Origin: an uncultured archaeon | Lineage (GTDB): Archaea > Iainarchaeota > Iainarchaeia > Iainarchaeales > CSSED10-239 | NCBI GenBank assembly: GCA_964463155.1 | Contig: CAYXAY010000025.1 | Span: 1-10,398, forward strand | DNA: 10,398 bases | Direction: 5' to 3' | Shown: positions 1 to 10,398 of the stretch, in pieces | Numbering within the stretch: position 1 is the first letter of the stretch | How the letters are laid out: the number at the start of each line of letters is the position of its first letter | Program-made: the position numbers and the translations under genes | Notes under the pieces: generated by a model | Told to the model about the DNA's origin: nothing | The model's database searches: none | What the model saw: only the letters and a program-made list of their open reading frames with translations

Positions 1-371
1 AAATCAAGAAAAAGGGTGACAAGCTAACAATAGTGACTTATGGTCGGATGGTTCACCTTGCATTGGAAATTGCGAATTCAACGAACTCTGACATAGAAGT
101 TTTAGACCTCAGAAGCTTACAGCCATTGGATATAGATTTGATAAAGAAATCTGTTAAAAAAACAGGCAAAGTTATTATTCTTGAAGAAGGTTATGGTTTT
201 ATAGGAGCCGAAATTGCTACTCGAATAAATGAAGAACTCTTTGATTATCTAAAAGCCCCCATCAAAAGAGTATTTTCGAAGAGGGTACCACTCCCTTATA
301 GTAAAAAATTAGAAGAAAGGATACTTCCTTCAAAAGAATTACTTATCAAGGAGATTAATTCTTTGCTTTAA
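1..371 (+). CDS. 2-oxoacid (pyruvate/acetoin/branched-chain type) dehydrogenase E1 component beta subunit, C-terminal transketolase-C domain; 5' end lies outside the window
   Basis: The ORF-track frame stays open back to position 3 (atc aag aaa aag ggt gac aag cta aca ata gtg = IKKKGDKLTIV), so the GTG at 33 is not the real start. IKKKGDKLTIVTYGRMVHLALEIA...IEVLDLRSLQPLDIDLIKKSVKKTGKVIILEEGYGFIGAEIATRINEELFDYLKAPIKRV is the typical C-terminal third of E1-beta subunits. Stop TAA at 369-371. Confidence 0.85.
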   Translation, partial: IKKKGDKLTIVTYGRMVHLALEIANSTNSDIEVLDLRSLQPLDIDLIKKSVKKTGKVIILEEGYGFIGAEIATRINEELFDYLKAPIKRVFSKRVPLPYSKKLEERILPSKELLIKEINSLL

Positions 372-378
372 TTTTATT

Positions 379-639
379 TGTGGAACAGAAACACAAGCAA
401 TTTATTTTCTAAACTATAAAAGCAAGCGATTACTCCAAAGGAATGATTGATGTCGCTAACGATAAGCTAAAGAAATTAAAAAGAAAAGTTTCTTGTAGGG
501 GATATGAGAAACATTAAGTTTGGAAAAGCTGATTGCATTATAACAATGTTTAATGATATTTAAGGAATTAAAGGAAACACTAGAAAGAAAAGGTTTTAAG
601 ATTCTAGAATATATGGTGGCCAAAGTTTCCCAAGTTTAA
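379..639 (+). pseudogene. Decayed class I SAM-dependent methyltransferase relic (at least 3 frame changes, internal deletion, no intact start)
   Basis: Four consecutive pieces in different frames read in methyltransferase order. 379-417 gives CGTETQAIYFLNY (degenerate GCGTG motif I). 416-485 gives IKASDYSKGMIDVANDKLKKLKRK (the 'v.GiD.S..Ml..A' segment). 486-560 gives KFLVGDMRNIKFGKADCIITMFNDI (the 'v.f..gDm.nl.f...fD.I....f' acidic-loop/motif II region), then TAA at 561. 562-636 gives KELKETLERKGFKILEYMVAKVSQV (a C-terminal '...GF.i.e' segment). The middle of the fold is missing. Confidence 0.45.
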
Positions 640-736
640 TGACAAGAAAAGCGAAAGCATCTATATAGTTTCTCAAAAAGAATAAATTTAGTTATTATTA
701 AAAAAAGAATGCATCTATAATATATCGGTAATAATT

Positions 737-1252
737 ATGAAGAATAAATTTGTTGGTTTTATTATACTTTTTATTGCATTGTTAATGTTTGCAATCATCT
801 TTCTATTTAATAGGGGCATGACAGACATTGTTAATACTTCTTGTGATCACGGACCGAGATGTCCAATGTGGGAAACTATTAATTTTCAAACAAATGTAAG
901 TATTGGCATAACCATTTTTGTAATATTGGTTGGCGTGTTTTTGATATTTTTTGGCAATGAAGAGAAAATAGTAACAATCGTAAAAACCAAAACAGTACAT
1001 CCTAAAAAAGTCGCAAATAAGATAACTAAAACAGAATATTCTAATATCCTCTCTACTCTTAATTCAGAAGAAAAGACAGTTTTTGAAAAGATTATTGAAG
1101 CAAAAGGAAGCATATATCAATCAGAGATTGTTCAAAAAACCAATTTTACAAAGGTTAGAGTCACAAGGATACTGGACAAACTAGAGGGAAAAGGCCTAAT
1201 TGATAGAAAAAGAAGAGGAATGACAAACATCGTTCTTTTAAAGAACAATTGA
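737..1252 (+). CDS. Membrane-anchored winged-helix (MarR/TrmB-like) transcriptional regulator: two TM helices, a Cys/His/Cys/Met loop and a cytoplasmic wHTH (resembles the archaeal COG2512-type architecture)
   Basis: TM1 is FVGFIILFIALLMFAIIFLF. The loop NRGMTDIVNTSCDHGPRCPMWETINFQTN has the motif at nt 842-871. TM2 is VSIGITIFVILVGVFLIFF, followed by a Lys-rich linker. The wHTH (nt ~1058-1243) reads LNSEEKTVFEKIIEAKGSIYQSEIVQKTNFTKVRVTRILDKLEGKGLIDRKRRGMTNIVLL. The positive-inside rule places the loop outside and the wHTH inside. Confidence 0.75.
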   Translation: MKNKFVGFIILFIALLMFAIIFLFNRGMTDIVNTSCDHGPRCPMWETINFQTNVSIGITIFVILVGVFLIFFGNEEKIVTIVKTKTVHPKKVANKITKTEYSNILSTLNSEEKTVFEKIIEAKGSIYQSEIVQKTNFTKVRVTRILDKLEGKGLIDRKRRGMTNIVLLKNN

Positions 1253-1263
1253 AACTAGTTTCA
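1250..1263. promoter_or_regulatory. Perfect 14-bp palindrome TGAAACTAGTTTCA, candidate operator of the copper-module promoter
   Basis: It is self-complementary when read directly. It overlaps the TGA stop of the regulator gene and sits just upstream of the TATA-like box. A third GTTTCA half-site lies at 1282-1287, inside an imperfect direct repeat (gtttcaagatataatat 1258-1274 and gtttcaatataatat 1282-1296). Confidence 0.4.
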
Positions 1264-1264
1264 A

Positions 1265-1280
1265 GATATAATATATAAAT
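1265..1280 (+). promoter_or_regulatory. TATA-like box for the 1301/copA transcription unit (archaeal-type, near-leaderless)
   Basis: gatataatatataaat is centred about 25-30 nt upstream of the ATG at 1301. There is no Shine-Dalgarno-like purine run before the ATG. Confidence 0.3.
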
Positions 1281-1300
1281 GGTTTCAATATAATATTTCT

Positions 1301-1906
1301 ATGGGTAAAGAAAACAAAAAAGGAATAGCCAAAGGTTTGTTGTTTGCAATTATCCCCCACATAGGGTGTATACTTTTTATAGTTTTAAGTGTACTTGGAG
1401 TTACTATTGCGGGCAGTTTCTTTAGAAATTTATTATTTAATAGATATATATTTTACATACTTATCGGATTGTCCTTTTTATTTGCGGGGCTTTCTACAAT
1501 AATTTACTTAAAGACAAACAAGATATTGTCAATAGCAGGCATAAAAAGAAAATACAAGTATATCCTTTTGATGTTTGGAACTACAATTGTTGTTAATCTT
1601 TTGCTTTTTTTTGTAATATTTCCTTTCATTGCTAATTTTTCTATAAATAACCAGCAAAACCTCACATCATCTGGGCTTTTAGATGTCACAAACCAGATAA
1701 CTAATACCATTGTTGTGGACATCCCCTGTTCAGGACATGCTCCATTAATAATAAATGAATTAAAAACAATACAGGGAATTATAACAGTAAAGTTTAAACT
1801 TCCAAATCGTTTTGTAATAACTTATGATAAAACAAAAACCTCAATAATTGAAATAATTAATCTTGAAATTTTTAACGAATTTCCTGCAAAACTGATAAAG
1901 AGATAA
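1301..1906 (+). CDS. Three-TM membrane protein with a C-terminal HMA-like (ferredoxin-fold) domain carrying CSGH instead of CxxC; MerT/MerP-like fusion architecture, putative membrane-tethered metal acceptor/chaperone
   Basis: TM1 LLFAIIPHIGCILFIVLSVLGV contains P-H-I-G-C (nt 1355-1369). TM2 is YIFYILIGLSFLFAGLSTIIYL, followed by the basic loop KTNKILSIAGIKRKYKY. TM3 is ILLMFGTTIVVNLLLFFVIFPFIANF. The C-terminal region TIVVDIPCSGHAPLIINELKTIQGIITVKFKLPNRFVITYDKTKTSIIEIIN has a beta-alpha-beta-beta-alpha pattern with the metal loop where GMxCxxC would sit (CSGH at nt 1727-1738). Its stop is 3 nt before the copA ATG. Confidence 0.7.
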   Translation: MGKENKKGIAKGLLFAIIPHIGCILFIVLSVLGVTIAGSFFRNLLFNRYIFYILIGLSFLFAGLSTIIYLKTNKILSIAGIKRKYKYILLMFGTTIVVNLLLFFVIFPFIANFSINNQQNLTSSGLLDVTNQITNTIVVDIPCSGHAPLIINELKTIQGIITVKFKLPNRFVITYDKTKTSIIEIINLEIFNEFPAKLIKR

Positions 1907-1909
1907 AAC

Positions 1910-4084
1910 ATGAAAAAAACATATAAAATTACTGGCATGCATTGCACTTCTTGTTCCAAAAACATAGAGACAGCTTTAAAGAACGAGAAAGGAATTACAA
2001 AAACTACTGTTAATTTTGCAACAGAGTTTGCTGAAATAGATTTTGATGAGAAAAAAACATCTGAAAATGAAATTTTTACAAAAGTAAAACAACTAGGCTA
2101 TAACATAGAAGAAAAAACAGAAGAAATTACTGAGAAAAAACCAAAGAACGAATGGAAAATAAGGTTTTTTATTTCTCTAATATTTACAACCCCCATTTTT
2201 GTTCTTTCAATGTTTGTTTCTGATTTTAGTTCAAAGAACTTAATTCTTCTTTTGCTTACAATTCCGGTTCAGTTTTTTATTGGGTTTGCATTTTATAAAA
2301 GTTCATATTATTCTGTTAAGGCAAAAGCAGCAAACATGGATGTATTGGTTATTGTTGGAACAACCGCTGCATTTATTTATAGTGTGCTTGTTATCTTGAT
2401 GCCTGAAAGTTTTGGACACATGGCGTATTTTGAGATTTCAGCAGTAATAATTACTTTTGTAGTTCTAGGAAAATGGTTAGAATCACACTGTAAGGGAAAA
2501 GCATCAGAAGCAATAAAGAAATTAATTGATCTTAAGCCAAAATTTGCAACAGTTTTAAGAAACAATAAAGAAATAAGAATTTCAGTAAAGGACATAGTAA
2601 TAGGAGACATAGTTATTGTCAAACCCGGAGAAAAAATAAGTGTTGATGGGGTAGTAATTTCTGGAGACTCTTATGTTGATGAGTCAATGGTGACCGGAGA
2701 AAGCAAACCTGTGCATAAGACTAAGGGAAATGAAGTAATCGGAGCCACTATAAACAAGAACGGTTCTTTTACCTACAAAGTAACAAAAATCGGAAAAGAC
2801 ATGTTTATTAGCCAAATAATTAAACTTGTTGAGGACACTCAAAACAGTAAGGCGCCTATTCAAAAACTCGCAGATAAGATTAGTGGTTATTTTGTGGTTA
2901 TTGTGATTGTCATTGCCTTAATTAGTTTTTGTGTGTGGTATCTTTTGCTTGCTAAAAGTTTTGTATTTGCATTAATTGTTTTTATTTCAATTTTAGTGAT
3001 TGCTTGTCCTTGTGTTCTGGGCCTTGCAACACCCACTGCAATTATAGTATCTACTGGCATGGCTGCAAATAATGGCATATTAATTAAGAACGCAGAAGTC
3101 ATTGAAAGACTATCAAAAACAAACACAATTGTATTTGACAAAACTGGAACCTTGACTTCTGGTTTTCCGGAAGTTACAAAAGTTATTTCTTTAGATGAAA
3201 GTATATCTGAAAAAGAAATATTAAAGATTTCAGCAATAGGCGAGAAAAAATCAAACCACCCTTTGGCTGAAGCAATAGTATCAAAGACAAAATCAGAAAA
3301 AATAAACTATGACTTTAATCCAGAAAAGTTTTTGGAAACAGACGGCAAAGGCATTTCTTTTATTTTAGAAAAATCAAAATATCTTGTTGGTAATAAAAAA
3401 TTATTAAATGAAAGCAAAATTGATTGCACGAAACAAGATAAGCAAATTATGGAGCTAGAAAGAAAGGCTCAAACAGTTGTTCTTGTTTCTAGAGACAATA
3501 AGTTAATTGGATTAATCTGTATATCTGACAAAATAAAAGAAAATGCAAATCTTGCAGTTTTAAGATTAAAAGGAAAAGGCAAGGAAGTTATACTTCTTAC
3601 AGGAGATAATTCTGAAACAGCAAAGGCCGTTGCAAAATCCGTTGGAATAGATAAAGTAATCTCTGAAGTTTTACCTAAAGATAAATCAGAAGTAATTAAA
3701 GAACTTCAAAAAGAAGGAAAAATTGTGACAATGGTTGGAGACGGTATAAATGATGCTCCTGCTCTTGTTCAAGCAGATATCGGCATAGCGATTGGTTCAG
3801 GAACAGATGTTTCTATAGAAGCAGGACAAGTTGTTTTAATTAAAAATAACATATTAGATGTTGTTAGAGCAATAGATATAGCAGAATTTACCTTTAAAAA
3901 AATAAAACAAAATCTTTTCTTTGCGTTCTTTTACAATTCAATAGGCATTGTTATAGCAACAGGTGCTTTTTATGGGATTTTAGGTTTTATATTAAACCCA
4001 ATGATTGCCGCGGGAGCCATGGCATTAAGTTCAGTATCTGTGGTGTCAAATTCTGTATTAATGAAACGCCACAAATTCAAATAA
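1910..4084 (+). CDS. copA: Copper-translocating P1B-type ATPase
   Basis: There is a single N-terminal HMA motif, GMHCTSC (1934-1954). Also present are actuator TGES (2693-2704), the TM6 CPC motif in [11 protein letters not shown] (3005-3013), the phosphorylation site DKTGTLT (3137-3157), the [11 protein letters not shown] motif, and the hinge [10 protein letters not shown] (3737-3766). Length is 724 aa. Confidence 0.97.
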
Positions 4085-4088
4085 ACTA

Positions 4089-4098
4089 TTTCTTTTTT
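4089..4098 (+). terminator. Oligo-T tract after copA, possible archaeal-type intrinsic terminator
   Basis: tttctttttt begins 5 nt after the TAA stop at 4082-4084. No convincing hairpin accompanies it. Confidence 0.3.
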
Positions 4099-4244
4099 AC
4101 AATTAGTTTCTGCGGATTTATCATAATATCCTTCAACATACTTAGAAACATTCTTTACTTTTGTAATTTTCGTAAGCAATCACAAACATTTGAGAAACAA
4201 TTATTTTATAATGTTATTTGCAATATATGGTATCAAGTGATAAC

Positions 4245-5267
4245 ATGTCAACAGTATACTTCAAAGCAATTGATGATTATTCTAAGACAGATGAGATTAA
4301 TATGGCAGTCTTAGAACTGTTTAAGAAAGTCAATAATGGCTTTGTGGGGGAAGTAGCAATTAAAGTTCATTTTGGAGAAGACGGAAACAAGACTTTTATT
4401 TCTCCAAGAAATTATGATCAATTGATTGATTATCTCCAAAAGAATAATTGTACTCCAGTCTACATAGAATCAAATGTTTTATACAAAAGCAAAAGAACAA
4501 CAAGAGAAAGCCACATAGCGTTGGCAAAAGAACATGGCTTTACTAATCTTCCAATAGTTATTGCTGACGGATATATTGGAGAAGAATATATTGAAGTTGA
4601 AATTTCTAAAAAGCATTTTAAAAGTTGTAAGATTGGAAAGGCCTACAAGAACTATTCTCAATTTATAGTTATTACTCATTTTAAAGGACATGGACTTTCG
4701 GGGTTTGGAGGAGCAATCAAAAACCTAGGAATGGGTTTTGCAGCAAGATCAGGAAAACTAGCAATGCATGCTAATTCTAAACCAATAATCAATCCATTTA
4801 AATGTAAGAAATGTCATCTTTGTGAACAGAATTGTCCAGTTAATGCTATAACTATTGGATTAATTCCACACATTGATACAAAGAAATGTATTGGTTGTGC
4901 AAAATGCATAGCCATTTGTCCACATCATGCATGTACTGTTAATTGGATATCAACTTTTCCAGGTACCTTTGAAGAAAAGCTTTGCGAGTACGCTCTTGCT
5001 GCAACTAAGGCAAATAAAGATAATCAAATAATCTATATTAACTTTTTATTAAATATTACAGACAACTGCGATTGTATGTCTCACACAAAAGTTGTTGCAA
5101 AAGATATTGGTATTCTTGGTGGAACAGACCCTGTTGCCATGGACAAAGCATGTTTTGATCTACTAAACAAAAAAGAAAACAAAAAAGTCTTTCCTGGAGA
5201 AAAAACTTTTGATTATGCTGAAAGTATTAGTCTTGGTAAGAAAGAATATATTTTAAAAGAAATCTAA
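4245..5267 (+). CDS. DUF362-type protein (COG2768-like uncharacterised Fe-S protein) with an inserted 2x[4Fe-4S] ferredoxin domain
   Basis: Two CxxCxxCxxxCP motifs are present: CKKCHLCEQNCP (4803-4838) and CIGCAKCIAICP (4887-4922). Flanking segments look typical of DUF362 (VAIKVHFGE, ITHFKGH, NITDNCDC). The ORF track starts at TTG 4218. ATGs occur at 4227 and 4245, and I prefer 4245 (MSTVYFK) because family members usually begin close to the VYF strand and a TATA-like attttataat lies at ~4203-4212. The start is uncertain within 4218-4245. Confidence 0.85.
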   Translation: MSTVYFKAIDDYSKTDEINMAVLELFKKVNNGFVGEVAIKVHFGEDGNKTFISPRNYDQLIDYLQKNNCTPVYIESNVLYKSKRTTRESHIALAKEHGFTNLPIVIADGYIGEEYIEVEISKKHFKSCKIGKAYKNYSQFIVITHFKGHGLSGFGGAIKNLGMGFAARSGKLAMHANSKPIINPFKCKKCHLCEQNCPVNAITIGLIPHIDTKKCIGCAKCIAICPHHACTVNWISTFPGTFEEKLCEYALAATKANKDNQIIYINFLLNITDNCDCMSHTKVVAKDIGILGGTDPVAMDKACFDLLNKKENKKVFPGEKTFDYAESISLGKKEYILKEI

Positions 5268-5280
5268 TATAAATATATTT

Positions 5281-6114
5281 ATGCGAATACTTCCAAAGAT
5301 ATTTAAAAGACCAAAACATAAGAAAGACATAGTAAAAAGAGTTTCTGAGGGAAAAAAAACAGATAGTTGGGCAAAGAATGGAACCAAAGACAGATATCGA
5401 ATAGTATTTGAATATAAATTAGAAAATCACCCGCTTGAATTCTTAGAAAGATTGAAAAATAAAAAACCAAAAGTACTGTTTATTGGTCCAGGAAAAGGAG
5501 AATATATTAAAATATTCAAAGAAAAACTAAATGAAAAAGGCATATCTCCGGAAATATCAGTAATTGGCATAAAAAAATCAATTAATCCAGATTTATTAGA
5601 AGAAAAAGTAATTAATAGAGACTATTCCATTGATAAAACAATGGAAGACATTTTTGATAATCCAAATAAATATGAAACATTAATTAAAATTCTAAGAGAC
5701 AATGCAGATTTAGTTATTGCTTCTAAAAGCTCAGGATTTCACACATATTACCCCGCATATAATGTTTTTATTTCTGCACTTTTGCTAAAACCAGGCGGAA
5801 GAACATATATTGAAATACCAACTAGAGAATTAATACTTGGAAGTGAATCAAGAAAATCAAAAAACCAACAACCTTATGGTATTTTTAATAAACTTAAAAA
5901 AATAATTTACGGAGAAGAAGATTATGAAAACCAAATACAATATCGCCATAAAAAAAGAATGATTAGAGAAGTTGAAAATATTTCTGAAGAAACAAGAACA
6001 TATTTAAACAAATACTTTAAAAGAGACGTGTCTAAAGAATTTGAGATAAATTTATTTAATAAATCTAAAAGCGCAGGCTCTGTATTTGTTATAGTTAATA
6101 GAAAATCCCTATGA
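5281..6114 (+). CDS. Lys-rich hypothetical protein with divergent class I (Rossmann) SAM-methyltransferase-like motifs
   Basis: The 277-aa ORF contains KVLFIGPGKGEY (motif I-like G-x-G-x-G), ADLVIAS (a beta4-like strand) and ALLLKPGGRTYIE (the 'LLKPGG' post-motif strand). The N- and C-terminal tails are very basic. The ATG lies 13 nt after the DUF362 stop. Confidence 0.55.
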   Translation: MRILPKIFKRPKHKKDIVKRVSEGKKTDSWAKNGTKDRYRIVFEYKLENHPLEFLERLKNKKPKVLFIGPGKGEYIKIFKEKLNEKGISPEISVIGIKKSINPDLLEEKVINRDYSIDKTMEDIFDNPNKYETLIKILRDNADLVIASKSSGFHTYYPAYNVFISALLLKPGGRTYIEIPTRELILGSESRKSKNQQPYGIFNKLKKIIYGEEDYENQIQYRHKKRMIREVENISEETRTYLNKYFKRDVSKEFEINLFNKSKSAGSVFVIVNRKSL

Positions 6115-6116
6115 TA

Positions 6117-6386
6117 TTATTTGTAGAAAAGCTTAAGATTGTGTTTTACAAACTTGTCAATTATTTTGTTTAGGAGTATTTGTTCTCCTTTCTTTAGATA
6201 AATATATCCGAAAATAGAAGCAAATACTGCTCTAAGAGTATTACGCAAAAAATCCTTCGTGGTATCAATTATTCCAATCCGAGAATCACAAGGTCCTGTT
6301 TCTAGGCAAAGATAATCTTGTTTTTTGCAGGTTTGCACCAATTGTATTGTCAACACAAAATTCAAAGATTTCTTATACCATTCCAA
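6117..6386 (-). CDS. Hypothetical 89-codon ORF, possibly a gene remnant with a faint RNase III/Mini-III-like C-terminal motif
   Basis: An open frame of 89 codons is unlikely by chance in DNA this stop-rich. However, it has no ATG at all (only TTG at 6386-6384), a TGA lies two codons upstream, and its stop is 2 nt from the convergent 5281 gene stop. ...LRAVFASIFGYIYLKKGEQILLNKII... resembles the 'EALIGAIYLDgG' end of RNase III domains, but the acidic catalytic positions are not conserved. Confidence 0.3.
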   Translation of the reverse strand: MEWYKKSLNFVLTIQLVQTCKKQDYLCLETGPCDSRIGIIDTTKDFLRNTLRAVFASIFGYIYLKKGEQILLNKIIDKFVKHNLKLFYK

Positions 6387-6582
6387 TTGTCAAAGTTATA
6401 CAAAAGATAATTGTTGCAATATACAAAACGCTTGTTTTAATTTTTAATTTCCTTATTTCTTAAGAGTTTGTTGTAGGTGATGGCAAAGCGATGGGCTTTT
6501 GTATTATATTTCTACTCAAAATTTTAAATAATAAAATAGTTACTTATTTAAAGAGTTTTAAGCTAAAATTTAATTGATAAAA

Positions 6583-6669
6583 ATGATTTCTGAAGAACAT
6601 ATTGAAGAGCTAGACTCTAATGGTAACATTATATTTGCCACTGTTCATTTTATTGATAAAATTAAATAA
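6583..6669 (+). other. 28-codon ORF (MISEEHIEELDSNGNIIFATVHFIDKIK) carrying copy 1 of the 19-bp repeat; probably the displaced 5' end of the gene that now starts at 8019
   Basis: ATG at 6583 and TAA at 6667-6669. Codons 5-10 (EHIEEL) are encoded by the same 19 nt as codons 5-10 of the 8019 ORF. Confidence 0.25.
6595..6613 (+). repeat. Direct repeat copy 1: GAACATATTGAAGAGCTAG
   Basis: Exact 19/19 identity with 8031-8049. The flanking bases differ on both sides (a/t before, a/g after). Confidence 0.9.
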
Positions 6670-6714
6670 GTAGGGAATTCTATTTCTATTAGAATCGCCA
6701 CAACCTGTAGATTA

Positions 6715-6732
6715 TGTCGATTATAATCGACA
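6715..6732. promoter_or_regulatory. Perfect 18-bp palindrome TGTCGATTATAATCGACA, candidate operator abutting the ATPase promoter
   Basis: It is self-complementary when read directly. It ends 2 nt before the TATA-like box at 6734-6743. Confidence 0.45.
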
Positions 6733-6733
6733 G

Positions 6734-6743
6734 ATATTTAAAT
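6734..6743 (+). promoter_or_regulatory. TATA-like box (atatttaaat) for the ATPase gene
   Basis: It is centred about 27 nt upstream of the ATG at 6765, which fits an archaeal leaderless transcript. Confidence 0.35.
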
Positions 6744-6764
6744 TTTTGGTAGTATATATAATAT

Positions 6765-8003
6765 ATGGATACAAACGCAATTAAGGAAGTTTTAAAATTT
6801 AGTGATAATAATCTTGATGACTTTACAGAGTCTCAAAGGTTTTTATTTTCTGAGATTGAAAGCAAAATATCTCATTTTTCAAAAAAACGTGGACTTAATA
6901 TTATATTAATAACTGGACTTAGAGGAACAGGTAAAACCACAATCTTGAAGACAATTGCTAAGAAACATAACGGTCTATATATCAGTGGAGATTTTCTAAA
7001 GACTAAGCAAATAGATATTCCAGACTTAACTGAAATTTCTAAAGCTTATGATAAAAAGATAATAATTATTGATGAGATACTTTATCTTTCAGATTGGCAA
7101 TTAAAGTTAAAGATTGAAGCAGACACTAATCAGAATATTCTTTATATCATTTCTGGTTCTTCAGCAATGCAGTTAAAGAAGATTTCTCCGGATTTATCTA
7201 GGAGATTAGATACTTATAGGCTTAATCCATTATCTTTTAGGGAATATCTAGTTTTAAAGAATAATCTTAAATTAGAGCAGAAAGTTGATTTTTCTAGTTT
7301 TTCAAATAAGGATCAAGAAAAGTTATTTTTAGAGTTATCTTCAATCAAGCAGAAACTACCAAAAAACATATATTCTTTGTTTAAAGAATATTATGAAGAT
7401 CAGTTACCTTATCTTCTAGAGGAAAAGAACAAAAGAGACAAGATAAGGCAGTTAGTTGATAAAGTCATATATAAAGACATGCCGCAGATTGATAATCTAT
7501 ATACTGAGCAATTAAGAAATGCAGAAATCATTATTATGTTTTTAAGTTCTGCAGAAAAGATAAACTATACAAGTATTTCTACAAATCTAGGTATTAAAAA
7601 AGACATGGTGATTAAGATTATTAATCTTTTAGAAAAATCTGATTTATTATATATAGTTCAAGACGTTATTCCGACTAGAGAACTTAGAAGTAACAAGAAA
7701 GTTCTATTTTCTTCTCCCGGAATAAGGATAGCACTAAACGAGATAAATGAAGAAATGGTTATTGGTTTTTCAAGAGAAGACATGTTTGGTTTAATTATTA
7801 AATCTGCTGGTTTAAAAATAGCATATAACTACAAGCAAAAAGGTTATGATTATTTAGTTAACAAAGTAAAATTTGAGATAGGCAAGAACAAGACCAAGAA
7901 CAGTACAAGCAAAGGCACCATTGTCGTAGGCGACTACTTAGATGTAGAATACAAAAAGCAAGTACTTTATGTTCCAATGTTTCTTTTAGCTTTAATTAAT
8001 TAA
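6765..8003 (+). CDS. AAA+ ATPase of the AAA_14 + DUF4143 (COG1373-like) family with a C-terminal PD-(D/E)xK-like motif
   Basis: Walker A is ITGLRGTGKTT (6915-6941) and Walker B is IIIIDEI (7059-7079). The DUF4143-like/wHTH segment is VIYKDMPQIDNLYTEQLRNAEIIIMFLSSAEKINYTSISTNLGIKKDMVIKIINLLEKSDLLYIV (~7458-7680). The C-terminal GYDYLVNKVKFEIGK (7842-7886) corresponds to the family's 'EvDFv....iEvK' region. Confidence 0.88.
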   Translation: MDTNAIKEVLKFSDNNLDDFTESQRFLFSEIESKISHFSKKRGLNIILITGLRGTGKTTILKTIAKKHNGLYISGDFLKTKQIDIPDLTEISKAYDKKIIIIDEILYLSDWQLKLKIEADTNQNILYIISGSSAMQLKKISPDLSRRLDTYRLNPLSFREYLVLKNNLKLEQKVDFSSFSNKDQEKLFLELSSIKQKLPKNIYSLFKEYYEDQLPYLLEEKNKRDKIRQLVDKVIYKDMPQIDNLYTEQLRNAEIIIMFLSSAEKINYTSISTNLGIKKDMVIKIINLLEKSDLLYIVQDVIPTRELRSNKKVLFSSPGIRIALNEINEEMVIGFSREDMFGLIIKSAGLKIAYNYKQKGYDYLVNKVKFEIGKNKTKNSTSKGTIVVGDYLDVEYKKQVLYVPMFLLALIN

Positions 8004-8018
8004 TTTAGGGGTAATGCA

Positions 8019-8267
8019 ATGTTTGATATTGAACATATTGAAGAGCTAGGTTGGTCAGTAAATAATCACCCTACAAGTAAATTAATTGTAACAAATCGGA
8101 GAAAGGTATCGTTAAAAAAACACAATTTTACTATATTATTTAATAAAAGTAATTGCTGTGTTCCATTCTATATGAAATCTAAAAATGGGGATGCATTTGG
8201 ATTAACAAGCGGGGCAGGATCGTCCGTAATTAGATTCGATAATAATTTTAGAAATTCGGGCCGATAG
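8019..8267 (+). CDS. Hypothetical 82-aa protein, no recognisable family
   Basis: The ATG at 8019 is preceded by an SD-like aggggt with 6-nt spacing. Stop TAG at 8265-8267. I recognise no motifs. Confidence 0.45.
   Translation: MFDIEHIEELGWSVNNHPTSKLIVTNRRKVSLKKHNFTILFNKSNCCVPFYMKSKNGDAFGLTSGAGSSVIRFDNNFRNSGR
8031..8049 (+). repeat. Direct repeat copy 2: GAACATATTGAAGAGCTAG
   Basis: Exact 19/19 identity with 6595-6613. It begins at codon 5 of the 8019 ORF, the same phase and offset as copy 1 in the 6583 ORF. Confidence 0.9.
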
Positions 8268-8359
8268 CAGATAAAGATGGTCAAATGCTTTTAGATTCTG
8301 TAATTGAAAAAAGGTTTAATTTTTAAATTTTATGGCATCACATAATATTTGGTGTAAAT

Positions 8360-10398
8360 ATGAATAAACTAGTTTCTTTTAAAGTAATAAATAAATCTGT
8401 AGCTAGAAAAATTTGTATTTTTTTAATAATTAGTTTTATGTTATTTTCTACAACATATATGTTTGCGAGGACAACTTTTATTCCCCAGAATTTTGATTTT
8501 AAAAAAGATATTGATATTTCAAATGCCTATATTAATTATGAATCAGAAGTTCTTAATAATATGCTTGAAGAACGCAAATATGATTTTTTTAAATTAAACA
8601 CGAATAGAGATTATGTTGATGGAGAAATATTAGTAAAATATAAGAAAAGCCAAATAGATTTAGATACTTCTTCGGGAAGAACAGATGCCAAAAGTTTTAG
8701 TATTAATAATTTATTGACAAAAGTTGAATATTTAAGAAAAGACAATATATCTATATTAAGAATAAATGATAATAAAAGTGTTGAAGAAAAAATAGAAGAA
8801 CTTGAAAATGACCCAAATGTAGAATATGCACAACCAAACTATATTTATTATCCGTTTGGTATAGACACAAATGACATTAATAAAAATGTTTTATGGGGAT
8901 TACATAATTTTGGACAAAATGTAAATGGAGTTTCTGGAACAAATGATGCAGATATTGATACTCCCGAAGCTTGGGGAATATCTGTTGGTTCTTCTAGTGT
9001 TATTGTCGCAGTTATAGACACCGGTGTTGCATATAATCATCCAGATTTAATTGGTAATATGTGGGATGGGGCAACTTGTAAAGATGAGAATGATAAAATA
9101 TTAAATAATTGTGTTCATGGTTATGATTATTCAGATAATGACAAAACACCATTACCAACACTAAGTGATCATGGGACTCATGTTGCTGGAACTATTGCTG
9201 CTTCTAAAAATAATGGTACTGGAATAATTGGCGTTGCACCAAATGCAAAGATAATGGCAATAAGAGCAGGAATAGATAGCTTTACTACTGCAAATTTAAT
9301 TAAATCAATAAACTTTGCAAGAAGAAATGGTGCACACATAATAAACGCAAGTTGGGGTGGCACAGCATCTGATACGACATTACGAAATGCAATTAATTCT
9401 TTTCCAGGATTATTTATTGCGGCTGCAGGTAATAGTGGAAGAGATCACAATAATACAGCAATTTATCCTTGTGATTATAATTCTACAAATATAATTTGTG
9501 TTGCTGCAACAGACCAAAACGATAACTTAGCTTTATTTTCTGATTATGGTACAATATCTGTAGATGTTGGAGCACCAGGAACAAACATTTATAGTACAAT
9601 TAATGGTTTTCTTAATGATGCTTTAGATGAAAACTTTGAAAGTGTAACTGCGCCACAGATCCCTAATAATTGGGAAGCTGCAGGAACTCATGTGAATTGG
9701 GGCACTGTTGATATTAACGGAAATTACGAAAATGTGTTATATGGCGACCAGGTAGTTCCTTATGCAAATAATGCAAATTCAACAATTACTTCTCCAACTG
9801 TTGATTTAAGTAATATTGGTGGGGCAACAATAACTTTCGTGACCGTTTGCGATACAGAATTAGATTTTACATATTGGAAAGATTATATGGCATTAGAATT
9901 TAGTAGTAACGGTAGTACATTCACTGAAATATTAAGATGGGACGAAGCATATTTTTCCCCAGGGAATGTTGTACCAATAATTAAAGAAGATATTTCTACA
10001 AAATATTTAACAAGTAATTTCAGATTTAGATATAGATGGGTTACGAATAGTTCAGATAATAATTATGGTGGTTGTTTTGTAGATAATATTTTGATAAAAA
10101 CTTACAGTAATGGCTTTGATGATGAATACGCTTATTATGACGGAACATCCATGGCAGCACCACATGTTACAGGATTAGCTGCATTAATACGGGGATACAA
10201 ATCTGATCTAAATTATTCACAAGTTAAGGATTTGATTTTAAATAACGGAGATTCATTAAATTCATTAAATAATAAAACAGTAACGGGTAAAAGAATAAAT
10301 GCACAAAAAACTCTTGAAGCAATGAATGTATATAAACCAACAATAGTAAATGTGTCTTCAACTAAACCGAATGGCAGATATAAAGCAGGAACCGATAT
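8360..10398 (+). CDS. Secreted subtilisin-like serine protease (peptidase S8) pre-pro-enzyme with a large inserted beta-sandwich-like domain; 3' end lies outside the window
   Basis: This ORF is absent from the ORF track because it has no stop in the window. I translated it codon by codon from ATG 8360 to 10398 (679 codons) and found no stop. The signal/anchor is KICIFLIISFMLFSTTYMFA (to ~8467). The I9-like propeptide is GEILVKYKK...NDPNVEYAQPNYIY (~8618-8851). Catalytic residues are Asp in VAVIDTGV (gac 9017-9019), His in SDHGTHVAGTIAA (cat 9170-9172), oxyanion Asn in AAAGNSG (aat 9431-9433) and Ser in GTSMAAPHVTGLAAL (tcc 10148-10150). An SD-like ggtg lies 5 nt upstream of the ATG. Confidence 0.93.
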   Translation, partial: MNKLVSFKVINKSVARKICIFLIISFMLFSTTYMFARTTFIPQNFDFKKDIDISNAYINYESEVLNNMLEERKYDFFKLNTNRDYVDGEILVKYKKSQIDLDTSSGRTDAKSFSINNLLTKVEYLRKDNISILRINDNKSVEEKIEELENDPNVEYAQPNYIYYPFGIDTNDINKNVLWGLHNFGQNVNGVSGTNDADIDTPEAWGISVGSSSVIVAVIDTGVAYNHPDLIGNMWDGATCKDENDKILNNCVHGYDYSDNDKTPLPTLSDHGTHVAGTIAASKNNGTGIIGVAPNAKIMAIRAGIDSFTTANLIKSINFARRNGAHIINASWGGTASDTTLRNAINSFPGLFIAAAGNSGRDHNNTAIYPCDYNSTNIICVAATDQNDNLALFSDYGTISVDVGAPGTNIYSTINGFLNDALDENFESVTAPQIPNNWEAAGTHVNWGTVDINGNYENVLYGDQVVPYANNANSTITSPTVDLSNIGGATITFVTVCDTELDFTYWKDYMALEFSSNGSTFTEILRWDEAYFSPGNVVPIIKEDISTKYLTSNFRFRYRWVTNSSDNNYGGCFVDNILIKTYSNGFDDEYAYYDGTSMAAPHVTGLAALIRGYKSDLNYSQVKDLILNNGDSLNSLNNKTVTGKRINAQKTLEAMNVYKPTIVNVSSTKPNGRYKAGTD

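Follow-up and report, generated by a model that had tools for sequence, protein, structure and literature searches.

Putative membrane-anchored regulators with a conserved hairpin tip, linked to copper-resistance genes in DPANN archaea

The bacterial regulators ToxR, CadC and TcpP act while tethered to the membrane, and their extracytoplasmic cysteines join in signalling. To our knowledge, ArnR and ArnR1 are the only membrane-integrated one-component regulators described in archaea, very little is known of gene regulation in the DPANN archaea, and no metal sensor has been characterised in these lineages. ArnR and ArnR1 of Sulfolobus acidocaldarius are membrane-bound winged helix-turn-helix (wHTH) regulators with two transmembrane (TM) helices, which act on promoters from the membrane; ArnR starts with its wHTH, continues with a HAMP-like region and has its TM helices at the C-terminus; it controls genes for the archaellum and pili and does not sense metals (PMC12107092). 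CopR, the one archaeal copper sensor that our searches brought to light, is exemplified by PF0739 of Pyrococcus furiosus; it is encoded beside copA, binds a semi-palindromic site in the cop promoter and responds to copper and silver; it contains a helix-turn-helix and a cytoplasmic Cys-rich TRASH domain and forms octamers, and a membrane anchor is not mentioned in its description (PMC7830388). Here we describe a regulator gene found upstream of a copper ATPase gene in a stretch of 10,398 nucleotides (nt) from an uncultured archaeon of the Iainarchaeota (assembly GCA_964463155.1, contig CAYXAY010000025.1, positions 1 to 10,398 of the forward strand). This whole stretch is referred to below as the window.

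Judging by sequence comparison, the regulator may be a membrane-tethered one-component Cu(I)/Ag(I) sensor with an outward-facing tip that controls a copper-resistance regulon; we consider this reading about as probable as its negation. No description of the regulator family was found in the literature, and the data point to undescribed outside-sensing copper (or copper/thiol-stress) regulators. A preliminary description of this DNA, made from the letters alone, had drawn attention to the loop between the two TM helices. The conserved palindrome and promoter behind the regulator gene, which lie outside the coordinates of that observation, are new.

Regulator architecture and the hairpin tip

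The features of the regulator are as follows (aa, amino acids; TM1 and TM2, TM helices 1 and 2; AF2, AlphaFold2).

737–1252, + strand: regulator gene, open reading frame of 171 aa; predicted order N-in, TM1, extracytoplasmic hairpin tip, TM2, Lys-rich linker, wHTH
749–808, + strand: TM helix 1 (aa 5–24), hydropathy maximum, AF2 helix 3–35
842–871, + strand: hairpin tip C36-x-H38-G39-x-x-C42-P43-M44-W45, candidate Cu(I)/Ag(I) or thiol-redox sensing site
896–952, + strand: TM helix 2 (aa 54–72), hydropathy maximum, AF2 helix 43–72
1052–1240, + strand: winged helix-turn-helix DNA-binding domain (aa 106–168), from Pfam, PDB profile and fold matches

The segment reads C-D-H-G-P-R-C-P-M-W, the codon of Cys36 being nt 842–844 and that of Trp45 nt 869–871, and it lies between two hydrophobic segments, so that both the residues and the position given in the preliminary description are exact. 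The maxima of the Kyte–Doolittle profile, computed for 19-mers, are 3.21 (aa 5–24) and 2.94 (aa 54–72), and they flank the loop. Across the alignment, the five N-terminal residues carry a net charge (K+R minus D+E) of +1.7, the 31-residue loop one of −0.5 and the segment that follows TM2 one of +4.1. By the positive-inside rule, this distribution places the N-terminus inside, the loop outside and the C-terminus inside, in agreement with the extracytoplasmic loop proposed earlier. The cytoplasmic position of the C-terminus is also required because the DNA-binding wHTH must be cytoplasmic.

The AF2 model of the regulator, constructed with the family alignment, has a mean predicted local distance difference test (pLDDT) score of 83.9. 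It consists of helices 3–35 and 43–72 joined by a turn at residues 36–42, then a linker, then the wHTH. Because the turn falls at these residues, the conserved motif is predicted to be at the tip, i.e., at the end of a helical hairpin in which each helix extends about 11 residues past its hydrophobic core. The linker between TM2 and the wHTH was modelled with low confidence (pLDDT 49–61). The model terminates with the wing (strands E155–160 and E163–168) and has no C-terminal helix.

A MarR-like wHTH in the remaining part of the protein was borne out by profile searches. The C-terminal part matches Pfam DUF7343 (PF24034) with 43.7 bits at a cut-off of 27.6, aa 109–168 being aligned with positions 2–61 of the 62-position model. 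The MarR family (PF01047) is matched by aa 119–159 with 32.6 bits at a cut-off of 24.6, and this match covers only the wHTH core (41 of 59 model positions). The best PDB profile match is the MarR protein 8xt8 (E 2e-5). Both the sequence-profile and the fold searches of the PDB revealed only MarR/ArsR-type wHTH matches, and nothing similar to the hairpin was found there.

The regulator has two Cys in total, both within the loop. The preliminary description went too far in calling Cys36, His38, Cys42 and Met44 the only soft-metal ligands of the protein, since His88, Met1, Met17, Met28 and Met162 also exist. His88 is outside the conserved columns, and Met162, located in the wing of the wHTH, is kept in at least 90% of the sequences of the 82-sequence alignment considered below.

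The conservation of the tip was analysed in a word-indexed search of 5.8 billion proteins, which returned 509 homologues at E ≤ 1e-3. The best 120 of these 509 are all about 165–175 aa in length and 55–73% identical to the regulator. The pattern C.H...C.M is present in 117 of these 120 proteins, and the remaining three contain C-S-M-G-x-x-C-P-M-W, where Met replaces His. Such a His-to-Met exchange is one that a Cu(I) ligand position would tolerate, Met being a Cu(I) ligand as well. In alignment A1, comprising 82 sequences with identity down to 30%, the only invariant columns are C36, C42 and Q128, and H38, G39 and M44 are conserved in 94%, 96% and 98% of sequences, respectively. Mean column entropy reaches its minimum within the protein in segment 36–45 (0.96 bits); the values for the wHTH and the linker are 1.21 and 1.87 bits. 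By these sequence measures, the conservation of the tip motif is far above chance.

A conserved tip might still play only a structural role. In that case, a disulfide or tight turn would staple the hairpin or dimerise it, and sensing would be performed by a membrane partner (the MerTP-like protein, CopA or HMA chaperones), by the state of the lipids or membrane, or through regulated proteolysis freeing the wHTH. The tiny ectodomain of about 30 residues and the flexible linker are consistent with this explanation, and cleavage has been documented for ArnR and ArnR1, two membrane-bound regulators of archaea (PMC12107092). Against it, the conservation of the tip exceeds that of the TM helices and the wHTH, and its side chains are typical of soft-metal sites. 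Taking also the gene neighbourhoods discussed below into account, we regard a purely structural tip as unlikely.

Two other interpretations of the tip were rejected. Cys36 is not part of a lipoprotein lipobox: it is preceded by N-T-S rather than [LVI][ASTVI][GAS] and is located 11 residues past the hydrophobic core. A haem-binding CxxCH or a TRASH domain is contradicted by the wrong spacing and the lack of a Pfam match of that kind.

A conserved palindrome and promoter behind the regulator gene

Enrichment of k-mers downstream of the regulator genes revealed a palindrome, which in the window is followed by further promoter elements.

1249–1264: perfect palindrome TTGAAACTAGTTTCAA with the core GAAACTAGTTTC (1251–1262), candidate operator
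1265–1279, + strand: A/T-rich TATA-box-like element, putative promoter of the structural genes, judged from position and composition
1282–1288, + strand: putative third half-site GTTTCAA directly past the TATA-like element, recognised by conservation of its offset

The palindrome overlaps the stop codon TGA of the regulator gene (1250–1252), and such an overlap is also present in many other loci. The ATG start codon of the gene for the MerTP-like protein is at 1301. A search for GAAACTAGTTTC, with C and G allowed at the two central positions, was performed in 63 loci. It returned 50 sites in 48 of the 63 loci, mostly one per locus; 45 of the sites are the exact 12-mer, for which 0.09 occurrences would be expected by chance in 787 kb. 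With few exceptions, the sites fall between genes, about 50 nt ahead of the first structural gene.

The promoter consensus of the family is TGAAACTAGTTTCA-acaat-NN-tTtATAAG-N-tGTTTCA, which corresponds to the layout TGAAACTAGTTTCA, 9 nt, TTATAAG, 2 nt, GTTTCA, about 14 nt, ATG. Of 49 sites, 42 have an exact GTTTC 30–42 nt past the start of the palindrome, and 38 of these have it at offset 31, compared to a background of 2.4%. In many loci, the next start codon is 50–52 nt past the palindrome start. Given that the TATA box is centred near offset 25, the operon transcripts are predicted to be leaderless.

A reciprocal scan was carried out in metagenome contigs with the pattern TGAAACTAGTTTCA-N(16–22)-GTTTC, and 94 hits had at least 600 nt of upstream sequence. 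A same-strand regulator homologue ending within 1.2 kb upstream, mostly at a distance of 0–70 nt, was found for 71 of the 94. A hidden Markov model search near the 23 hits lacking a regulator did not reveal a hidden regulator gene. About 11 of these 23 sites have the full promoter architecture and precede genes for HMA chaperones, Cys-rich c4 proteins, DUF411 or Met/His-rich membrane proteins; the remaining sites, about half of the 23, look like chance matches. The regulator-less copies of the promoter suggest a wider regulon.

The palindrome is also present in loci of clades with other tip loops (L035, L038, L047, L050 and L058). In 156 relatives without the tip motif of the regulator (hereafter, the core motif), the DNA-reading residues Q128, K139, V140, K141, R144, D147, E150, R157, R159, R160, G161 and N164 are conserved at 85–100%. 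The constancy of these residues across the clades agrees with one palindrome shared by their loci. On this comparative evidence, the promoter is very probably the regulator's own target, and the palindrome its likely operator.

In archaeal promoters, a site upstream of the B recognition element (BRE) is typical of activators, and a site between the TATA box and the start is typical of repressors. Here, sites in positions of both types are combined, and the regulator may act by activation or by repression. A dual role has been proposed for CopR (PMC7830388).

The region upstream of the regulator gene was analysed in the same manner. Enrichment of k-mers in the 150 nt upstream of 36 regulator genes yielded TATA-like words and coding-sequence starts and nothing else, and an operator in this position was rejected, as no such element was obtained. 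A 19-nt direct repeat, AAAAGCGAAAGCATCTATA / AAAAAAGAATGCATCTATA, can be noted upstream of the regulator gene in the window (647–665 and 701–719, 54 nt apart). It has no counterpart in the upstream enrichment of the other loci and might represent duplicated promoter elements. An Rfam scan of the window gave zero matches.

Gene neighbourhood, loop classes and possible signals

The genes that follow the promoter in the window are listed below.

1301–1906, + strand: MerTP-like membrane protein, 201 aa, HMA-like domain at its C-terminus; the gene that comes first after the palindrome
1910–4084, + strand: CopA, copper-translocating P1B-type ATPase; HMA domain (CxxC) at the N-terminus, CPC motif
4218–5267, + strand: DUF362 protein with two 4Fe-4S ferredoxin motifs, directly after CopA
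6765–8003, + strand: AAA_14/DUF4143 ATPase, apparently unrelated to the regulator
8360–10396, + strand: subtilase (Peptidase_S8, fervidolysin-like prodomain), running off the window end, apparently unrelated to the regulator

CopA was identified as a copper-type (P1B-1) ATPase by its score of 607.8 bits against TIGR01511 (ATPase-IB1_Cu; cut-off 397) and 50.9 bits against HMA; its Pfam domains are E1-E2_ATPase, Hydrolase and HMA, and the CPC motif is present in the translation. The preliminary description put the regulator gene at the head of a CopA operon. This is correct insofar as CopA follows downstream on the same strand; however, a separate conserved promoter and operator lie between the regulator and the structural genes.

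A scan with one genome per species gave 62 loci, nearly all in metagenome-assembled genomes of DPANN archaea (Woese-, Pace-, Nano-, Aenigmat-, Micr- and Undinarchaeota). The motif is present in 35 of these loci, 24 of which have a same-strand CopA downstream; as for the others, six have only the MerTP-like gene, three are too short for judgement, and L040 has neither. When genome and metagenome loci were pooled, 45 core-motif loci had 3 kb or more of downstream sequence, and a same-strand CopA was found in 36 of them. The motif is thus kept in orthologues linked to copA, the point that the preliminary description had proposed to check. Among the 79 pooled core-motif loci, HMA-domain genes accompany the regulator in 57, MerTP-like genes in 32 and DsbD_2 genes in 22. 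The genes located between the regulator and CopA encode HMA chaperones, HMA-DsbD_2-cupredoxin fusions, FtrD-like proteins, thioredoxin-like proteins (including lipoproteins), DsbA-like proteins and an ArsP permease. Other neighbours linked to the regulator are cupredoxins, a Met-rich protein and DUF411, which we take to be the CopG family. The His-to-Met variant P0117 (locus L063) heads an operon of cupredoxin, HMA-cupredoxin and CopA.

The protein encoded directly behind the palindrome raises the question of another thiophilic metal, since it resembles MerT/MerP fusions (NCBIfam MerTP_fusion, E 1e-5), and two Cys and a His are able to bind Hg, Cd or Zn. We nevertheless consider it very unlikely that Hg(II), Cd(II) or Zn(II) is the metal sensed. 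The MerTP_fusion match is far below the family cut-off (25 vs. 180 bits), and homologues of MerA or MerB were absent from the Pfam hits obtained for the window genes and for representatives of the recurrent neighbour clusters. The best score of the ATPase is that for the copper type of P1B, and the cupredoxin and DUF411 neighbours indicate copper. In addition, Met is a poor Zn ligand.

In 37 homologues of the MerTP-like protein, the motifs P-H-x-G-C, in the first TM helix, and I-P-C-x-G-H-A-P are kept in at least 90% of sequences; the latter motif is located in the C-terminal HMA-like domain, which does not contain the usual CxxC. Some homologues carry an extra N-terminal HMA domain and a Cys-rich tail (e.g., L053 8531–9484). 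This protein may be a Cu(I)-handling membrane protein. The DUF362 protein is a singleton in the neighbour clustering and is outside the conserved neighbourhood of the other loci.

Recurrent fusions of 480 aa, comprising HMA, a DsbD_2 membrane domain and a cupredoxin-like domain, were found between the regulator and CopA in L016 (8772–10229) and in about 22 other loci. These fusions tie copper handling to transmembrane thiol-reductant transfer.

The regulator belongs to a much wider group of proteins. An exhaustive HMMER search resulted in 1142 representative clusters at E ≤ 1e-3. Among the best 150 clusters, the core motif is found in 25 and a different two-Cys loop in 83, and 42 have no loop match; most of the last are short, Cys-free sequences and probably fragments. 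The other loops include C-x(n)-C-P-H-E, C-F-L-D-D-G-T-C-L-H-E, C-x-L-P-x-x-I-C-P-F/Y and C-x(n)-C-P-M, and a further clade has C-x(12-15)-C-P-[AV]-H. Genes of the Cx12-15CPxH clade are located mostly with those of the c4 Cys-rich protein, the CxxC membrane protein c11 and DUF411, and rarely with CopA. Thus, the tip residues other than Cys vary with operon content, as expected for a specificity determinant.

Several additional observations concern the loci of these relatives. A c4/c11/c15 module (L040 8660–9400, L062 166–825, L180 and others) is found preferentially beside clades with non-core loops. The c4 protein is a membrane-anchored protein of 220 aa with S-C-E-Y-C-C-G...A-C-G-C-A-H-S and no Pfam match; it has two partners, one a membrane protein (motif H-C-P-L-C-T) and the other small and helical (motif W-C-C-S-K-H), and the module is often accompanied by DUF411. 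A role of the module in metal handling is likely. Some genomes encode two or three regulator paralogues with differing loop classes (L013 1031–2097, L045 and L162). In L013, the paralogues are in tandem with the palindrome between them, and all paralogues share the DNA-reading residues; crosstalk or heterodimers at one operator are conceivable. Locus L029 is labelled as a Patescibacteria group bacterium (candidate phyla radiation, CPR). Its loop has the sequence C-S-V-A-G-H-G-D-E-C-P-M, and the palindrome separates the regulator gene from MerTP-like and HMA genes that run in the opposite direction, away from it. Either mis-binning of the contig or lateral transfer could account for this locus.

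In the N-terminal half of the 156 non-core relatives, conservation reaches 80% in four columns only, G7, C36 (96%), C42 (97%) and G66. Therefore, the Cys pair marks the superfamily as a whole, is not specific to the copies linked to CopA and could be a disulfide or redox element. A thiol–disulfide switch would work by oxidation of Cys36 and Cys42 on the extracytoplasmic side, including oxidation catalysed by Cu(II), with a resulting change in the hairpin and in the output; the DsbD_2, thioredoxin-like or DsbA-like gene products would re-reduce the pair as feedback. Such a switch is suggested by the two Cys being the only near-universal residues of the N-terminal half across the clades, whatever the loop, and by the recurrence of DsbD_2 fusions, thioredoxin-like lipoproteins and DsbA-like proteins in the operons. 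In CadC and ToxR, two membrane regulators of bacteria, periplasmic disulfides likewise act in signalling. However, a pure thiol switch does not account for three features: His38 and Met44 are nearly invariant, His is exchanged for Met, and other clades repeatedly have Met, His or an aromatic residue two positions past the second Cys. It also does not fit well with a regulon dominated by the copper functions CopA, HMA, cupredoxin and DUF411. We find this explanation improbable, at about the same level as a structural-only tip.

The neighbourhoods bear on the structural-only explanation in both directions. A gene for a membrane partner, MerTP-like or HMA-DsbD_2, adjoins the regulator gene in most loci, which speaks for it. 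On the other hand, the loop classes track the operon contents as if the loop set the specificity, and no protease gene is conserved among the regulator loci.

Several points weigh against an outward-facing Cu(I)/Ag(I) sensor as well. Extracytoplasmic Cys pairs are often oxidised, and the pair considered here, being kept among unrelated loops and operons, may form a disulfide with a structural or redox role. Given that CopA clears cytoplasmic copper, sensing in the cytoplasm would be a simpler design. The linker appears flexible and variable in the model and the alignment, and a rigid allosteric route from the tip to DNA is not evident. The core-motif locus L040 has no CopA within 7.7 kb. Finally, the set of loci is biased, the genome loci having been found by patterns derived from this regulator and the metagenome loci by the operator pattern.

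If the favoured reading of the regulator as a Cu(I)/Ag(I) sensor is correct, signalling could proceed as follows. The seven-residue tip would display Cys36, His38, Cys42 and Met44, next to Trp45, and would bind Cu(I) or Ag(I) from outside, either within one protomer, with an S2N(S) ligand set, or bridging two. Metal binding would alter the packing or pairing of the hairpins, and this change would shift the occupancy of the operator by two cytoplasmic wHTH domains attached through Lys-rich linkers of about 30 residues. The operator would consist of TTGAAACTAGTTTCAA just upstream of the BRE/TATA and of the GTTTCA half-site between the TATA box and the operon start. The outcome would be induction of the genes for copper export and handling, in the window the putative leaderless operon of the MerTP-like gene and CopA. 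In this scheme, we infer palindrome binding by the regulator, metal binding by the tip, the identity of the metal, the direction of control and the signalling mechanism.

We also propose, tentatively and as a possibility somewhat short of even, that the regulator represents a large archaeal superfamily, mainly of DPANN, in which the hairpin tip, with two Cys and with His, Met or aromatic residues that differ between clades, senses Cu(I)/Ag(I) from outside and, in other clades, other thiophilic or redox signals, and gates leaderless metal-resistance promoters via one operator (TGAAACTAGTTTCA, TATA, GTTTCA). If this is true, the loop variants amount to a series of natural exchanges of specificity, made on a DNA-binding module that stayed the same. 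The sensor reading, if true, would provide a membrane-anchored, outward-facing archaeal metal sensor, a type that we found nowhere in the literature, and a regulator–operator pair precise enough for predicting copper regulons from metagenomes. The tip would then be a minimal sensing module of 7–10 residues, a model for transmembrane signalling and possibly a part for biosensors. Because the operator is conserved and the family is large, this candidate is unusually well defined and testable.

Comparison with known systems

Hydropathy, charge bias and the AF2 model predict that the regulator combines a DNA-binding domain, a membrane anchor and an extracytoplasmic segment in a single polypeptide. 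In this respect it is similar to ToxR, CadC and TcpP, which also have a cytoplasmic winged helix and an extracytoplasmic sensing part in one chain. The bacterial proteins, however, begin with an OmpR-type wHTH, cross the membrane with a single helix and carry a folded domain of more than 100 residues in the periplasm, whereas in the regulator the order is reversed, a two-TM hairpin with a loop of about 30 residues being followed by a MarR/DUF7343 wHTH. No OmpR-type (Trans_reg_C) match was found in the regulator, and there is no sequence relationship between them.

The domain order is also opposite to that of ArnR and ArnR1, from which the regulator differs further in the lack of a HAMP match, the two-Cys tip and the putative copper regulon; it is thus not an ArnR-type protein. 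CopR, as described, is set apart from the regulator by the membrane anchor and the outward candidate site of the latter, and no TRASH family is among the Pfam hits of the regulator at E ≤ 0.1. The metal-responsive ArsR/SmtB group is not a match either: NF033788 (HTH_metalloreg) scores the regulator at 15.8 bits with a cut-off of 55. With the MarR family, only the wHTH core is shared. The flanking dimerisation helices of MarR proteins, which provide both the dimer interface and the ligand pocket, are absent, the N-terminal half is a predicted TM hairpin, and the protein ends after the wing, unlike a soluble MarR homodimer.

The bacterial Cu(I) sensor CsoR has a Cys2His site, and the periplasmic Cu(I)/Ag(I) chaperone CusF uses His/Met2 and a capping Trp. 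The tip of the regulator, offering Cys2, His, Met and Trp, resembles both in ligand chemistry only, and is related to neither in sequence or fold. Taken in comparison with all these systems, the regulator would be an architectural variant of metal-responsive one-component regulators, found in a poorly understood group of archaea.

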